Positions 5,624-18,283 are shown, counted from the first letter of the stretch. The stretch is 18,283 nt of DNA from Nitrosopumilales archaeon (GCA_044507735.1 JBIQJB010000001.1:297007-315289), one strand, 5' to 3'. Made by a program: numbers and translations. The notes: generated by a model not told the origin, from the letters alone.

Positions 5624-6490
5624 CTAGGCGATCTTTGACTTTTTCAGCGCCTTTGTAACCTTAACAAGCTCGCCTTCAATGAGATCTGCCTCTTCTTTCT
5701 TTATCTTTGGTGTGTCAAGGAATGGCTCCCTTGATTTTGTCCTCTTGTTCTTTATCACTTCGATATCAAAGTAAGAAGTGACTCCCTCTTCTCCCTGCAT
5801 GAGTCTGTTGTAGTCAATAATGACGGGCGCTGTCTGGTAAAGCTCTATTAGAAGGTCACTGAGCTCTGAAAATAGCCTATTCTTCTTATTGCCCAGTTCT
5901 TCGAACTCGGGGAACTGACTCTCGACCGCTGACGCCTTTTGGTCAAGCTCCTGTACGAGCTTTTCATCATCAAACATCTTTGTGAAAAGCTCCTGAAAGT
6001 CCAAGTTGGCAAAGCCACGCTTTTGAAGCTCTGCAGCAAGCGCCTTGTCGGCGGCTCCTGACATGTCTTTGAAGATTGTTGTCGCTTCTTCTGCGATCTC
6101 TGCCAGTTCTTTCTGTATCTCTATGACACGCCTGTCTACTCTATAGTAGGGAAGCACATGAAACTGGACACCAAAATACCCGCTGATATAGAACCTGCCA
6201 ACTTCCTTCGTGAACTGGCAATAGAGTCTGTGCAAGTCCTCTGTGGCGGACTTGAGAATCCCTGAAAAGACCCAGCCTTTGAGCTCAGTTGCAAGCCGCT
6301 GGTAGAACATTTGCACGTTCTGGGGATCAAATGTATCTGCCTGCGTCACCGTCCCATCGCCCAACATTGCACTGACCCTTTGCATCGCTATTGCCGGACC
6401 TATCGCCTCCAGGTAGGCCTGTTCTACCTCTTGCACGGCGGCATTGACTTGGCTACAGAAATAGTCGTCTCCCTTGAACGGTGCCCTCAC
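5624..6490 (-). CDS. Hypothetical soluble protein, largely helical/coiled-coil
   Basis: 288-codon ORF with protein-like composition (E/K/L-rich heptads) and no longer competing ORF; the true start may be a few codons downstream of the GTG at 6490. Confidence 0.8.
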   Translation of the reverse strand: MRAPFKGDDYFCSQVNAAVQEVEQAYLEAIGPAIAMQRVSAMLGDGTVTQADTFDPQNVQMFYQRLATELKGWVFSGILKSATEDLHRLYCQFTKEVGRFYISGYFGVQFHVLPYYRVDRRVIEIQKELAEIAEEATTIFKDMSGAADKALAAELQKRGFANLDFQELFTKMFDDEKLVQELDQKASAVESQFPEFEELGNKKNRLFSELSDLLIELYQTAPVIIDYNRLMQGEEGVTSYFDIEVIKNKRTKSREPFLDTPKIKKEEADLIEGELVKVTKALKKSKIA

Positions 6491-6562: not shown

Positions 6563-7384
6563 TTGGCCGAGGGAAAGGAAAAACACGAGGGAGAAGATCA
6601 GGAGAAGACCAGCAAGTCTCTTGTGGACATGATGATGAGCAACAACAATGGCACAGCACTCGGAGCTGGTGCCAAGACTGTCGATTCAGAGACTCTGGTG
6701 TCTCAGACACAGGACCGGCTGTGGAGGGCACTCAAGAGGCGTTTCCAGTATGACGTGACGCTGGAACCGGGGCAGAAATATCTTCTCAACCACGTAAGCA
6801 GTAAGATCCCCCTTGTGATAATGTACGCCGACCTCGTGGGCTCAACCAACATGAGCATGACGCTGCCTGCAGACAAGCTCACGACCATAATCAGGGCCTT
6901 CACCTACGAGATGTCCCAGGTGGTTTACAGCCACGAAGGCTATGTGCTAAAGTACGTGGGAGACGCAGTCATCTCTTTCTTTCCGGCGAGCTATAACAAA
7001 TTGCTTGCATGCGACAGGGCAGTCCAGTGCGCCAAGTCAATGCTTGCTGTAGTAAAGAATGGCATCAACCCCATTTTGAACCAGTATGACTACCCTGAAC
7101 TAAACGTCAAGATCGGAATGGACGAGGGGGAGAACGTAATCGTGCAATACGGACACGACAAGAGCTCGCAGATAGACATCCTCGGCTACTGCATGAACAT
7201 AGCCGCCAAGATAACCTCTTTGACTGGACCCAACAAGATCTCTATTGGAGAAGACGTTCACAAGATGCTGCATCCTTCGATAAGGGCAAAATTTAAGGAA
7301 ATGAAGCTCAACCCGGATGATTGGAAGTACACGAACCGGCAAACAGGCAAGTTGTACAGAGTATACACATTGGCCTCCGGTTAG
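6563..7384 (+). CDS. Class III adenylate/guanylate cyclase domain protein, stand-alone and soluble
   Basis: IMYADLVGST (metal Asp 1), VLKYVGDAV (substrate Lys and metal Asp 2), VKIGMDEG, IDILGYCMNIAAKI (substrate Asp and catalytic Asn); TTG start. Confidence 0.9.
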   Translation: MAEGKEKHEGEDQEKTSKSLVDMMMSNNNGTALGAGAKTVDSETLVSQTQDRLWRALKRRFQYDVTLEPGQKYLLNHVSSKIPLVIMYADLVGSTNMSMTLPADKLTTIIRAFTYEMSQVVYSHEGYVLKYVGDAVISFFPASYNKLLACDRAVQCAKSMLAVVKNGINPILNQYDYPELNVKIGMDEGENVIVQYGHDKSSQIDILGYCMNIAAKITSLTGPNKISIGEDVHKMLHPSIRAKFKEMKLNPDDWKYTNRQTGKLYRVYTLASG

Positions 7385-7390
7385 CTCTCT

Positions 7391-7645
7391 TTAGTTCTTG
7401 TCTTGTAGCATCCCTTCTATTGACTGGTGTGCCCTGAGGAATTCATGGCCCTTCTGAGTGATACGGTACCTCTTGTCTGTCTTGTTATATGACAGCATTC
7501 CGTTATGAAGTAGAAGGCTAAGGTATTCTTTCAACTGCGAGAACGATAGATATGCACCATACATGATTCTCGTTTTGCTTACGCCGTCGCCCTTGGCAAC
7601 TTCTAGAATCTCTGAAACAATTTCTGTCCTGCTTCTATACTTCAC
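7391..7645 (-). CDS. Small winged helix-turn-helix transcription regulator (HTH_45/ArnR1-like family, common in Nitrososphaerales)
   Basis: MKYRSRTEIVSEIL...SKTRIMYGAYLSFSQLKEYL..L...GML....RYRITQKG.EFL matches the family pattern; GTG start. Confidence 0.9.
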   Translation of the reverse strand: MKYRSRTEIVSEILEVAKGDGVSKTRIMYGAYLSFSQLKEYLSLLLHNGMLSYNKTDKRYRITQKGHEFLRAHQSIEGMLQDKN

Positions 7646-7677: not shown

Positions 7678-7822
7678 AGACGATATTAGATTCTATAATA
7701 TTCCTCTATAATTATGTCTAGTAATAGATGGGAAAGATCCGGGAGCCTGCGGCAGTTCAAAATTCAGTCATCTTGAAGGATCTGTCAAGTCCTCACGTCA
7801 TACGATCCTCTCGCCATCGCTA

Positions 7823-7957
7823 TCATTGCTGTCCTTGCTGCTCAATGTATTCTCTGTGGCCAGTTTGTGCCCTGTGCTGGACCAACTCTGATGTAGAAAT
7901 GAGCAGTTGATTGCAAGATCTGCAGATATAGCCAACAATTTTGCTGTCAGTTTCCAA
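7823..7957 (-). CDS. 44-aa C2H2 zinc-finger microprotein (not in the ORF track)
   Basis: Hand translation from TTG 7957: METDSKIVGYICRSCNQLLISTSELVQHRAQTGHREYIEQQGQQ*. Fits C-x2-C-x3-L-x8-H-x5-H. GGGAG SD-like motif at 7971-7967 (9-nt spacing) and TTAAAT at 8008-8003. Confidence 0.8.
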   Translation of the reverse strand: METDSKIVGYICRSCNQLLISTSELVQHRAQTGHREYIEQQGQQ

Positions 7958-8069
7958 CCTTCTCTACTCCCTATGGATGAGGGAGGGAAAGCCACGCGTC
8001 TCATTTAAGCAAGGTGGAATCATTTTCTAGAATTATCTATCTGCGCGATGCGCTACAAGAATACAAATC

Positions 8070-8100
8070 CCAAAAATGGAAGGGAGAAAAGAAGAGACAG
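8070..8100 (-). terminator. Putative pyrimidine/T-rich terminator after rps9
   Basis: Minus strand CTGTCTCTTCTTTTCTCCCTTCCATTTTTGG directly follows the rps9 stop. Confidence 0.45.
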
Positions 8101-8101
8101 T

Positions 8102-8548
8102 CTAACGGTAGGATTTCTGTTTCCTGCGCCTTGCGCCAGGGCCGCCAAACTTCTTTGATTCTGACTGCCTGCTGTCACCTGATAACAGATGCCTGTCATA
8201 TTCAGTGATCTTCTTCCTAATCTCTTCTCGTATGCTCTTTGTGAATGGATGATCCTTTGGGTCCTTACCTCCCTTCTGCTGACCCGTGAGTGCCCGTGAA
8301 ATCGCAACCGCGCTCGCAAAGGCCCTGCCCATAAAGCCACCCCCGCTTACTCTTACGTCTATGTCGATTCTGTTGCGATAGTCGCCAACAAGCGTCAGCG
8401 GAGTGAGCACCAACTCTTTTGCAACATCTGGTGTCAGCATTTCTGCCGGTATGTTGTTTATTCTGACCTTTCCTGAGCCTTTCGCAATCGTGGCAACTGC
8501 GCGGCTGGTCTTGCGTTGGCCTGGATAGAGCTCTATTTTAGTTGTCAT
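8102..8548 (-). CDS. rps9: 30S ribosomal protein S9 (uS9)
   Basis: GQRKTSRAVA, GSGKVRIN, VSGGGFMG, YDRHLL.GD.R, ESKKFGGPGARRRKQKSYR. The ATG at 8548 lies just past the rpl13 stop and is preferred over the track start at 8566. Confidence 0.97.
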   Translation of the reverse strand: MTTKIELYPGQRKTSRAVATIAKGSGKVRINNIPAEMLTPDVAKELVLTPLTLVGDYRNRIDIDVRVSGGGFMGRAFASAVAISRALTGQQKGGKDPKDHPFTKSIREEIRKKITEYDRHLLSGDSRQSESKKFGGPGARRRKQKSYR

Positions 8549-8550
8549 AT

Positions 8551-9024
8551 CTACTGTCCCTTCCACCCTATTTGCTTGGCGATCTCGCCGAGCGAAATAT
8601 AGTATGCTTCTGGCTTGGTAATCTTAGAATCTTCAAACGATTCCATTTTGGCGTTCTTCATTTCTTCAGGCACCCCGATATATACCCTCAAGCGCTTGAA
8701 CGCTGTCATGCCACTTGACTTTCTCTTTGGAACCATTCCTCTCACCATCTTGGATAGGATCGTGTCTGGTCTCCTTGGATGGAACGGTCCATGTATGGGG
8801 TTGGTAACCGAGTTAATCTCGAGGTGCTCCTTGTAAAGCTCTATAGTCTTGTAGCGGTTGTTGCCAGACAACATCGCTTTCTCTGCATTCACAATGGCGA
8901 CCTTGTTCCCCTGAAGCAAGAGCTTCGAAACGTGAGAGCACATCCTGCCTGCTATGCAATTGGTCGCGTCCACGACTATTGTTGTTGCTTTTTGCTGCTT
9001 TTGCACTGTCTTTTGTTCAGCCAA
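8551..9024 (-). CDS. rpl13: 50S ribosomal protein L13 (uL13)
   Basis: IVVDATNCIAGRMCSHVSKLLL, NAEKA, GPFHPRRPD, VRGMVP, RLRVYIGVP; position in the L18e-L13-S9 cluster. Confidence 0.97.
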   Translation of the reverse strand: MAEQKTVQKQQKATTIVVDATNCIAGRMCSHVSKLLLQGNKVAIVNAEKAMLSGNNRYKTIELYKEHLEINSVTNPIHGPFHPRRPDTILSKMVRGMVPKRKSSGMTAFKRLRVYIGVPEEMKNAKMESFEDSKITKPEAYYISLGEIAKQIGWKGQ

Positions 9025-14095: not shown

Positions 14096-14582
14096 ATCAG
14101 AGACTCTACACAATTTCGCTGGCTCTGTATGCCTAAATAACAAGGTGTGGGACAAGTCTACGAACCGCCTGTTTGAATGACTTTCTCGAACGGATTTTTT
14201 CGATCCGCCCTACTCAGGAACGGGTAACGTAGACGACATTAGCAAAAGCCGCGATATGATGGTCGCCTCTTCTACAACGGCCGCGTCATGGTACAGAGAC
14301 ACGGTCATGAAACACCGGCACAACATTTTTTCTGCTACTCTGCCTTACCCATTCACTTCTGGCGAAGACGCAACCCAGAGGATTCCAGATGAAACATAAC
14401 AGGAGACTGGGGCTATAAAATACTAGGCTTGATAGTTGCCAAAATAAGTGGCACCTTTGCACGGACGTACCTGCACGAGTGCAGACTCGTGATACGATCA
14501 CGAATCATGTCCAATCGGAAGGTAAAGAAAGCATATGTTGGTCCGAAGTTTCAGACGAGAACACTATCCTTGCCAACGCTAT

Positions 14583-14593
14583 GATTTTATAGG
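14583..14593 (+). promoter_or_regulatory. Putative TATA box for prefoldin beta (GATTTTATAGG)
   Basis: 33-43 nt upstream of ATG 14626; resembles the other GATTTT(T)A promoter elements in the window. Confidence 0.5.
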
Positions 14594-14625
14594 ATACAAT
14601 GTGATTAGTTGCAGAGTAATAGTTT

Positions 14626-15033
14626 ATGAGCGAACAGGAACTTCCACCATGGCTTAGAGAACAGGTATCACGCTTACAGCAGCTCCAGCAGAACCTGCAG
14701 GCTATAATGATGCAAAAGCAGCAGCTGGAGGTCGAGTCAGTAGAAACCGATCGAGCTCTTGAAGAACTGAAAAAGGCTGGCCCCGACGATGCAGTATACA
14801 AGAATGCCGGCTCTGTCCTCATCAAGGCAAAGAAGGAAGATGTCATCAAGGAGCTGGAGGAAAAGAAGGAGCTATCAAACACCCGCGTGATGGTCCTCGG
14901 AAAGCAGGAGGCGAGGGTGAAGGAAAACCTGAAAGAAGTCGAAAACAAGATAAACGAAATGGTTCGCGGCATGCAGGGCGGATCGGCTGGTCCGGCAGCA
15001 GGCGGAGCGGGCCCACGGCCTAGGGCTGAATAA
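14626..15033 (+). CDS. pfdB: Prefoldin subunit beta
   Basis: ELPPWLREQ, QQLQQNLQ...QKQQLE, ALEEL, VYKNAGSVLIK beta-hairpin, LEEKKE coiled coil; Gly/Ala-rich tail. Confidence 0.96.
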   Translation: MSEQELPPWLREQVSRLQQLQQNLQAIMMQKQQLEVESVETDRALEELKKAGPDDAVYKNAGSVLIKAKKEDVIKELEEKKELSNTRVMVLGKQEARVKENLKEVENKINEMVRGMQGGSAGPAAGGAGPRPRAE

Positions 15034-15065
15034 GAAATTATAGGGAAGGCAGACACATTTTTTGT

Positions 15066-17574: not shown

Positions 17575-17946
17575 CTATTGCGAGTTGACATAAACTTGAT
17601 TCTCCCTGCTGCCATCTAATGCCTTGTGTTTTTCATTCCAATGCGCTACGAAGCGCTGGATGTCATCTTCAAGCTCATTATATGAGCGCATTCTAAAATA
17701 GCGGGGGAACCTCCGACTGAATTCCTTGCAGTCAGCGCAGTTGTACCAGTAAGAGGAGGATCTGCCATGGGCCTCTCCTACTATGCAATTTTCAGGTGAA
17801 GTAATATCAGAATACCATTTGAGCCACCTAAACGACCATTTGCTGCTTGGCAGGTGCTGGAGCCGGACGCTCCACGAGGGGCAAATTTCAGACAGGGTCA
17901 CGAGTTCTTTTGCAAAAAGACATTTGCTGCGAACTCTTGTCTTCAT
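17575..17946 (-). CDS. Hypothetical protein with Cys/His motifs
   Basis: 123-aa ORF with ATG start; P.WS.RL, DI.....CIVGEAHG..SSY...CADC and F..HWNEKH. I recall similar paralogous hypothetical proteins in Nitrososphaera but have not verified this. Confidence 0.7.
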   Translation of the reverse strand: MKTRVRSKCLFAKELVTLSEICPSWSVRLQHLPSSKWSFRWLKWYSDITSPENCIVGEAHGRSSSYWYNCADCKEFSRRFPRYFRMRSYNELEDDIQRFVAHWNEKHKALDGSRENQVYVNSQ

Positions 17947-18035
17947 TGTTGGGGTACAAATTGATATTAAACAAGTTAAGGATTGTAGAGAAATTTACGG
18001 TCGATACTATTGTAGAAACGACTGAAAGAAATCCT

Positions 18036-18049
18036 GAAAACTCTTTTAT
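18036..18049 (+). promoter_or_regulatory. Putative BRE/TATA promoter of the DPS-like gene
   Basis: GAAAACTCTTTTAT, with TTTTAT about 26-31 nt upstream of ATG 18075. Confidence 0.55.
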
Positions 18050-18074
18050 CCCATATTTCGTCGTCGTTGATAGT

Positions 18075-18283
18075 ATGTCTACGTCTGCAGCTAGTAAAGA
18101 TAGTGTACCAAACGTTGTGGCACTTGAAGTCCTAAGAAAAAACGGAGTGGACGTTGAGAAGCTGATCAAACTCATTACGGCTGGAGTAGGGGCCGAGTTT
18201 ACGACGTACTATTACTATACCATTCTCCGGATGCACTGCACTGGCCTTGAGGGCGAGGGAATAAAGGAGATAGTCGAGGATGC
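18075..18283 (+). CDS. dps: DPS-like (DPSL) ferritin-superfamily protein, 5' part running off the window (not in the ORF track)
   Basis: Hand translation MSTSAASKDSVPNVVALEVLRKNGVDVEKLIKLITAGVGAEFTTYYYYTILRMHCTGLEGEGIKEIVED...; AEFTTYYYYTILR and G.EGEG.KEI.ED are hallmarks of archaeal DPSL. Confidence 0.92.
   Translation, partial: MSTSAASKDSVPNVVALEVLRKNGVDVEKLIKLITAGVGAEFTTYYYYTILRMHCTGLEGEGIKEIVED

Follow-up and report, generated by a model that had tools for sequence, protein, structure and literature searches.

An open reading frame (ORF) of 44 amino acids (aa), located on the minus strand at positions 7823..7957 of an 18,283-nucleotide (nt) stretch of DNA from a soil ammonia-oxidising archaeon (GCA_044507735.1, JBIQJB010000001.1:297007-315289; the whole stretch is called the window in the following), is probably a genuine gene. 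It would specify a microprotein consisting of one C2H2 zinc finger and belonging to an unnamed family with a TGH motif, which is expanded in the organism's own family of the Nitrososphaerales. This reading is given a probability of about 0.58. The C2H2 microprotein gene family as such is real, and the finger motif of this ORF is not a chance occurrence, but the window copy, which lacks the partner gene found next to some of its relatives, is a member of uncertain standing.

The ORF begins with TTG at 7957-7955, and its span includes the stop codon. Its residues are spaced Y10-x-C12-x2-C15-x3-L19-x8-H28-x5-H34, with C12, C15, H28, and H34 as ligands and Y10, L19, and L25 as hydrophobic core positions, the second of which is F in orthologues. 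The sequence Q-T-G-H occupies residues 31-34 and the TGH motif residues 32-34. Both the ligand spacing C-x2-4-C-x12-H-x3-5-H and the three core hydrophobics are thus present, and the ORF fits the PROSITE C2H2 pattern (PS00028). A Shine-Dalgarno-like (SD-like) GGGAG is located at 7967..7971 (minus strand), separated from the TTG by a spacer of 9 nt (7966-7958). In the original prediction, a TTG-initiated ORF with exact C2H2 spacing had been described, preceded by GGGAG at 9 nt and by TTAAAT farther upstream. All these elements were found again when the sequence was re-read, including C-x2-C-x12-H-x5-H and the three hydrophobic residues. Since the stop-to-stop frame opens just two codons upstream, TTG is the sole standard start for the finger ORF. 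It is a normal start in this lineage, as the gene for ribosomal protein L13 starts with TTG in the window and in the related genomes G017 and G066 (genomes are designated by G numbers, G000 being that of the window), and TTG is the first start codon in 358 of 1,092 long ORFs, a crude count with unverified starts. GGGAG provides weak support, with an SD core detected at -16..-5 in 14.4% of these 1,092 crude long-ORF starts and in 6.6% in a control window, and its position is poorly conserved across the finger orthologues. Two larger ORFs overlap the same interval, one of 68 aa on the minus strand out of the finger frame (7798..8004) and one of 60 aa on the opposite strand (7728..7910, plus).

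To judge the motif, its frequency in G000 (2.33 Mb, 55 contigs) was determined in six-frame ORFs of at least 25 aa. A strict motif comprised the C2H2 ligands and the three hydrophobic positions, and a bare pattern was defined as C..C-x12-H-x3-5-H. The real genome contains 33 strict and 75 bare motifs, compared with none and three in the reversed genome, none and 3-10 in each of five local shuffles, and 0, 0, and 1 strict and 9-19 bare motifs in three triplet shuffles. Most strict-motif ORFs (27 of 33) sit in frames of at most 120 aa, and five out of 20 other small finger ORFs of G000 pass a curated Pfam cut-off of the C2H2 type. A non-circular profile, made from 35 family members with the window ORF and its four nearest orthologues left out, detected the window ORF among 56,388 genome ORFs with an E value of 1.7e-12 (48.3 bits). 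A language-model search placed the ORF beside clusters of archaeal hypothetical proteins of 55-66 aa (scores 0.97, 0.96, and 0.95; recognition 2676), and comparison of the family profile A4 with the PDB revealed the consensus finger 1mey (E 3.7e-14) and the single fingers 2eor (E 2.4e-5) and 2eok (E 2.8e-5). The excess of strict motifs over the controls, the profile match, and the matches to solved fingers together establish that the ORF contains a C2H2 finger, as had been proposed, and that it belongs to a real conserved family.

The ORF begins 145 nt past the stop codon of rpsI, the gene for ribosomal protein S9, and this arrangement is shared with close relatives. The genus is represented by 72 genomes, 70 of which gave an S9 match at E <=1e-30, and the 30 best loci were taken for synteny. 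A family-profile match within 1.5 kb of S9 is present in six of them, the window, G066, G073, G017, G061, and G015, the last being a weak and partial match on the opposite strand (E 0.0013). The first five have the most similar S9 proteins, with 94-96% identity in the four relatives and no more than 92% in the rest. Downstream of rpsI, the orthologues of G066, G073, and G017 are intact and show 66, 63-65, and 50-57% identity to the window protein, respectively; the G061 match is partial. The TTG of the window aligns exactly with ATG in all four. In tblastn comparisons, G066, G073, and G017 keep the finger frame open, whereas the 68-aa frame is interrupted by stops in four out of four relatives and the 60-aa frame in three out of four. 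The earlier proposal that the finger explains this interval better than the two larger ORFs is therefore supported.

Conservation extends to a block of 32 nt at 8001..8032 (minus strand), which contains the palindrome TTCTAGAA at 8032-8025 and the TATA-like TTAAAT at 8008-8003. Identity to the window is 29/32 in G066, 26/32 in G073, 27/32 in G017, and 21/32 in G061, in which the gene is dead. The block probably serves the finger gene as promoter. Even with up to six mismatches allowed, G000 contains it a single time, so it is not a repeated regulatory word. TATA-like words peak genome-wide at -34..-28 of starts, but TTAAAT of the finger gene is located at -51..-46, which would imply a leader of about 20 nt carrying GGGAG. 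A word akin to the palindrome, TCTAGAAC, is found upstream of the neighbouring winged-helix gene in G073 and G017, and its window counterpart reads TATAGAATC (7684-7696). The TTCTAGAA and TCTAGAAC words could represent a shared operator.

Substitutions among the orthologues were analysed for signs of selection. Ratios of nonsynonymous to synonymous substitution rates (dN/dS) according to Nei-Gojobori were 0.32, 0.22, and 0.24 for the window versus G066, G073, and G017, respectively, and 0.29 for G073 versus G017. For the closest subgroup, 11 sequences (55 pairs) were compared over a core of 30 codons. Here, the median ratio of nonsynonymous to synonymous proportions (pN/pS) was 0.38 in the finger frame compared to 1.25 and 1.32 in the other frames. 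Similarly, pN was smaller than pS in all 55 pairs in the finger frame, compared to 13 and four pairs in the others, and stops were absent from the finger frame of all 11 sequences and present in nine and ten of them in the other frames. Base states in this core number 37, 27, and 60 at the three codon positions. Judged by these patterns, purifying selection acts on the finger orthologue group. In neutral simulations covering the distance from the window to G066 (26 differences in 123 nt), 4.4% of the runs retained the frame along with all four ligands, and 1.5% did so if the three hydrophobic residues were required as well.

A number of observations weigh against a functional gene in the window, and they pertain to two different explanations. 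According to the first, there is no gene, and the interval represents a chance ORF or a conserved non-coding element, such as an RNA or the 3' untranslated region of the rpsI operon. In favour of this view, the ORF is very short, starts with TTG, and stays below the cut-offs of curated families; the best Pfam match is zf-C2H2_OTU1_C (PF24560) with 20.6 bits versus a cut-off of 27 (E 3.5e-4). PF00096 was not listed for the ORF at E <=1, and the G017 orthologue scores 16.2 bits with this model. The single RNA run among 24 listed runs yielded one contig, spanning 8301-8457 within rpsI, which leaves the ORF uncovered, and DNA contigs of two soil runs match the ORF over part of its length with no differences. 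These data speak neither for nor against expression. For the window and G066, dN/dS amounts to 0.32 in the overlapping +1 frame as well; this pair therefore fails to separate the frames, and the case relies on the comparison of 11 sequences and on the stops in relatives. The 11-sequence set and alignment A4 had in turn been picked by the motif in the finger frame, so that fixed ligand codons and the absence of stops are partly built in. Even so, a strict motif is expected by chance 0-1 times per genome, the profile match is highly significant, substitution of the coding type is restricted to the finger frame, the other frames contain stops in relatives, and an Rfam scan of the whole window at gathering scores produced no match. 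It is therefore very improbable that the interval is not a gene.

The second explanation concerns a partner gene. In G017 and G073, the finger gene overlaps a gene of 84 aa by 14 nt, the TTG of the partner being located inside the last codons of the finger. The same pair with a partner of 87 aa and again an overlap of 14 nt is present in G018 at a non-syntenic site beside a putative L15e gene. When the window was aligned with DNA of G073 and G017, about 190 nt of the partner gene were missing, and only a remnant was detected at 7798..7845 (minus strand), consisting of a TTG at 7845-7843 within the finger 3' end, 15 codons, and a stop. This alignment demonstrates loss of the partner gene in the window genome. 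The remnant is the C-terminal part of the 68-aa ORF, which accordingly combines the finger region, read out of frame, with the dead partner. No close copy of the partner was detected elsewhere in G000 (best E 7.7e-4, 32% identity), nor was a partner-like ORF found beside the finger in G066 and G061. The designation as a stand-alone microprotein does not truly hold with respect to origin, since the gene derives from one half of a two-gene cassette as seen in G017, G073, and G018.

Loss of the partner raises the possibility that the window ORF is an orphaned relic, a finger that functions only together with its partner and is still intact for lack of time since the loss. The partner would have disappeared in an ancestor that the window species shares with G066 (and G061), and the changes from ATG to TTG and from ERK-stop to EQQGQQ-stop would be the first steps of decay. 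Several further data are consistent with decay. Of the five syntenic copies, only that of the window starts with TTG instead of ATG, and past residue 40 the tail differs among the window, G066, and G073/G017. The dead G061 orthologue shows a 1-nt deletion as well as stops and has lost Cys and His codons, and truncated or ligand-less remnants of the closest subgroup were also found in G012 and G005. Frameshifts or stops in close relatives, which the original prediction had named as evidence against the gene, are thus encountered in G061 but not in G066, G073, and G017. Among the decayed copies at loci L004 (G005), L074 (G012), and L075 (G061), one is devoid of the Cys pair, another has no N-terminal half, and a third shows a frameshift and stops, with a partner remnant downstream of it. 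The pseudogene in G061 and the remnants in G012 and G005 indicate that the finger family evolves by birth and death, the microprotein genes of this subgroup being gained and lost quickly. When neutral runs were performed over half the distance, the frame and ligands were kept in 21.5%. Together with the value of 4.4% over the whole distance, this indicates that the clade is constrained, while the window's own branch provides little signal by itself.

On the other hand, the dN/dS of 0.32 between the window and G066, two species without the partner, is weakly significant (one-sided Fisher p 0.018), and survival of the frame, ligands, and three hydrophobic residues over their distance is rare in neutral runs, as stated above. 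In addition, the upstream block is far better conserved between these two species than in the dead G061 copy, and TTG is a common start in the lineage, as exemplified by L13. The relic is thus a possibility that has to be taken seriously, but it appears clearly less probable than a functional gene.

The partner family was detected in 34 of the 72 genus genomes at E <=0.01. It does not correspond to a Pfam family, since 19 members gave no match at E <=0.01 and seven paralogues only chance-level rows at E <=10. Structure prediction yielded a model with a predicted local distance difference test (pLDDT) value of 92.2, in which strand-helix-helix occurs twice, amounting to four helices and two short strands. 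The best solved match is the uncharacterised PH0832 (Z 7.0, root mean square deviation (rmsd) 2.5, 72 residues), and Foldseek searches with this model against PDB and BFVD produced no match at E <=0.001. An ESM-Atlas row linked the partner to NitrOD5 (score 0.79, rank 23), which is a lead only. A death-domain-like character has been suggested for NitrOD2/4/5 (PMC5847659), and for the partner this idea is likewise a lead. The family is acidic, with a median net charge of -4. Partner-like ORFs occur in six of the 29 finger-centred loci printed, and pairing is therefore facultative. Prediction of a complex of the G017 partner and the G017 finger resulted in a score of 0.00 relative to a mark of 0.32, obtained without controls, which speaks neither for nor against binding.

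Two side observations were made on the pairing. G000 harbours a second finger/partner-like pair on contig C17 (66500-68200; L121), 230 kb from the window on its contig, where a partner-like ORF of 104 aa (694-1008, plus) converges on a C2H2 ORF of 45 aa (1019-1156, minus). Close partner orthologues adjoin genes for ribosomal proteins, S9 at L002 and L022, L15e at L003 and L029, and L39e/L31e at L025 and L026; of these neighbours S9 was checked with Pfam, and the names L15e, L39e, and L31e were assigned by eye, so chance may account for the association.

AlphaFold2 modelling of the finger on a 40-row alignment (pLDDT 81.4) yielded strands at 8-12 and 18-19, a helix at 22-32, and a strand at 37-41. 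The beta-beta-alpha fold anticipated in the original prediction is thus predicted, with a third strand in addition, which would be built by the conserved REYIE stretch. The protein would thus be a zinc-held beta-hairpin followed by a helix and the third strand. Residues invariant in the four closest orthologues are Y10, S14, N16, S21, A30, T32, G33, R35, E36, I38, and E39, and those from A30 onwards cluster in the inter-histidine loop and the strand following it. The N-terminal helix face, with which classical fingers read bases, is variable in the orthologues and devoid of conserved Arg, Lys, or His. Foldseek searches with the finger model against PDB and BFVD gave no match at E <=0.001. VIA-align ranked AFV1p06 first with a Z of 4.3, and Kaiso fingers and ZnF-UBP domains reached 3.0-3.7; such low values are expected for 44 residues.

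AFV1p06 (ORF59a of Acidianus filamentous virus 1, PDB 2LVH) is, to our knowledge, the one characterised archaeal case of a C2H2 finger. Like the window protein, it is a stand-alone archaeal one-finger protein of about 45-60 aa, and it shares the beta-beta-alpha zinc fold and a further strand with the predicted fold. It is the best solved match by VIA-align (rmsd 1.9 over 37 of 45 residues) and reaches a TMq of 0.61 with Foldseek, and the BFVD model of ORF59a was found at rank 5. Sequence identity amounts to 19% (VIA-align) or 18% (Foldseek), and profile A4 does not place 2lvh within its 60 best PDB sequences. In contrast to the window protein, AFV1p06 contains Glu in place of the fourth ligand, and it is viral and hyperthermophilic. 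It has crenarchaeal and euryarchaeal relatives. AFV1p06 is described as DNA-binding, and its authors are stated to have found no homologue in Thaumarchaeota (PMC3541406).

With classical eukaryotic C2H2 fingers (zf-C2H2, PF00096, and its clan), the window family has the ligand spacing and the three hydrophobics in common, and the family profile matches classical fingers of the PDB with E values of about 1e-5 for single fingers and up to 1e-30 for arrays. Classical fingers usually contain H-x3-H and a TGEKP-type linker. The window family differs in that one finger constitutes the whole protein, H-x5-H includes a fixed TGH, a C-terminal strand is added, and no such linker is present.

Nucleic-acid binding is the main alternative to a role as a protein adaptor. 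The gene would then be real, but its product would recognise the sequence or the structure of nucleic acids, either as a small transcription factor resembling AFV1p06 or as an RNA binder in the manner of eukaryotic H-x5-H fingers. Besides the structural match to a DNA-binding protein (PMC3541406) and the profile matches to DNA-binding classical fingers, the close orthologues are slightly basic (+1 to +3), and the ORF is flanked by a chromatin-type winged-helix gene and ribosomal protein genes, with partner orthologues near genes named L15e and L39e by eye. However, the base-reading helix face is variable, the window protein has a net charge of -1, and 95 of 120 small public relatives fetched are acidic with a median charge of -3. 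Furthermore, the conserved surface is located in the inter-histidine loop and the third strand, and the Z of 4.3 for AFV1p06 is low in absolute terms. Binding of nucleic acids is therefore considered rather unlikely.

The protein adaptor, by contrast, would fit the conserved TGH loop and third strand, the acidity, and the coupling to an acidic helical protein, from which we infer a protein-binding module. In this scheme, the finger gene would have a promoter of its own, located beyond the terminator of the rpoD-rpl18e-rpl13-rpsI operon, and its translation would begin at TTG. The product would be a zinc-stabilised binding module whose working surface is the inter-histidine loop with the third strand and not the helix face. 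Its ancestral target was probably the acidic helical protein of 84-87 aa specified by the overlapping gene in G017, G073, and G018. With the partner gone in the window and G066, the finger may act alone or with another target.

Two further groups of zinc proteins were compared. ZnF-UBP (BUZ) domains of HDAC6, USP49, and Ubp8 head the Foldseek list (TMq 0.65, rmsd 1.5, 35 columns, 23% identity, E 0.12), and VIA-align gave Z values of 2.4-3.4 over 38 residues; in both cases, the finger continues into a strand past a G-H motif. The window protein covers only about one third of the domain of about 100 residues, it is devoid of the second and third zinc sites and of the ubiquitin-tail pocket, and it has no match to Pfam zf-UBP. 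Since 35-38 of its 44 residues align to one sub-structure, membership in this family was rejected, and the likeness is local. The C(P)XCG micro-proteins of Haloferax volcanii are smaller than 70 aa, contain one zinc domain, and are present in many poorly annotated copies per genome (PMC6562870, PMC11241148, PMC10716476). They differ from the window finger by four Cys in two knuckles resembling a zinc ribbon instead of C2H2, and no sequence relation to the window finger was found.

The distribution of the family was determined with a 40-row profile at E <=1e-5 in 201 genomes sampled from the order. Matches were detected in 45 of these genomes, including 37 out of 40 in the window's own family and six out of 13 and one out of nine in two others. 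The remaining families of the order yielded no match, two of them at 0 of 40 genomes each. Up to 27 matches are present in one complete genome (G042), and a profile of four orthologues matched 46 of the 72 genus genomes at E <=0.001. The tallies for the genus include genomes flagged as unpublished (G009, G022, G052, G053, G054, and G079), and row L084 of alignment A4 derives from G079; no single claim rests on these genomes. The hallmark of the family is C-x2-C-x12-H-x3-TGH in proteins of 40-75 aa. Of the 40 rows, which had been picked by the ligand pattern, at least 90% share G33.

In G000, four small C2H2 ORFs with ATG starts (49, 38, 40, and 46 aa), which belong to the 33 strict-motif ORFs, are clustered on one strand within 1.7 kb of contig C9 (L123:1542-3179), adjoining a gene of 208 aa. 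On contig C10 (37712-38386; L120), an ORF of 225 aa contains a C-terminal finger of the family (profile E 3.8e-10), and its approximately 170 N-terminal residues have no Pfam match. Longer finger proteins of 211-237 aa are also present in G017, G073, G042, and G078.

Such genes are easily missed, as had been supposed. In an exact look-up in a collection of 15 billion proteins, the fingers of the window, G073, G017, G066, and G018 were absent and the G017 partner was present, although finger entries with another start choice would also escape an exact look-up. A single-sequence search of a clustered set of 5.8 billion returned no match, not even the ORF itself. NCBIfam contained nothing relevant for the finger ORF, and PHROGs gave no family for the window ORF, the G017 orthologue, and the partner, with two weak rows for one paralogue (E 0.0045 and 0.0096). 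In a public set, 172 small relatives were found at E <=0.001 among 190 candidates. Among the 120 listed, none is more than 36% identical to the window protein or carries a precomputed Pfam domain. The name "hypothetical protein" applies to about three quarters of them, a single one is called a ribosome-biogenesis protein, and the rest are nameless; two NCBI names give the organism as Nitrososphaera sp. Searching a library of 1.84 billion representatives with the family profile resulted in 5,211 matches, the best 150 of which are almost all long multi-finger proteins aligned to profile positions 7-29, and this search is therefore uninformative regarding the spread of the small family.

The window represents a core region of information processing. 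The minus strand encodes RpoD (Rpb3-like), L18e, L13, and S9, and the plus strand SBDS, Rrp4, Rrp41, Rrp42, and Pcc1. The upstream neighbour of the finger ORF is rpsI (8102..8566, minus; Pfam Ribosomal_S9, E 1.9e-30). T-rich tracts visible in the sequence at 8072..8092 (minus), past its stop codon (TAG, 8104-8102), are a possible terminator of the ribosomal protein operon; archaeal transcription terminates at oligo-T. The downstream neighbour is a winged-helix gene of the Sso10a family (7391..7645, minus; Pfam HTH_45, E 3.8e-22; NCBIfam Sso10a_fam, 86.6 bits with a cut-off of 60), and beyond it a convergent cyclase-like gene is located. The genes for L13 (8551-9024) and the cyclase-like protein (6563-7384) are both listed with a TTG start. 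Four further ORFs at 5624-6490 (minus), 14505-15056 (minus), 17575-17946 (minus), and 17847-18281 (plus) comprise 288, 183, 123, and at least 145 aa, respectively, and gave no Pfam family at E <=1e-4. The end of the window coincides with the end of its contig.

In eukaryotes, C2H2 fingers serve as the hallmark module for DNA binding, and archaea are considered to have few of them. The literature searched yielded no report on such fingers in ammonia-oxidising archaea, as judged from titles and abstracts. The fold belongs to a known class. What appears to be undescribed is the family itself, together with its signature of TGH and an extra strand, the gene pairing, and the expansion in the organism's own family of the order. 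With some thirty small one-finger ORFs in this genome alone, the family provides a concrete case of systematic under-annotation of microproteins in globally important nitrifiers. The pair, the orphan, and the pseudogene form a natural series for the birth and death of microproteins, of which the window copy is the weakest member, so that the interest of this particular finding is limited. The family as a whole, with 40 aa, a confident model, and a natural partner gene, is tractable for studying the role of a lone finger of the eukaryotic type in an archaeon. More tentatively, and with considerable doubt, the data may reflect an undescribed two-gene module, in which translation of a one-finger C2H2 microprotein is coupled to that of an acidic helical protein of about 85 aa, and which has been multiplied in soil ammonia-oxidising archaea, repeatedly beside ribosomal protein genes. 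Such a module could be a lineage-specific zinc-dependent switch or adaptor acting on the assembly of ribosomes or RNA polymerase or on chromatin. If this is true, these archaea would use the eukaryote-type finger as a common protein-protein module and not as a DNA reader.

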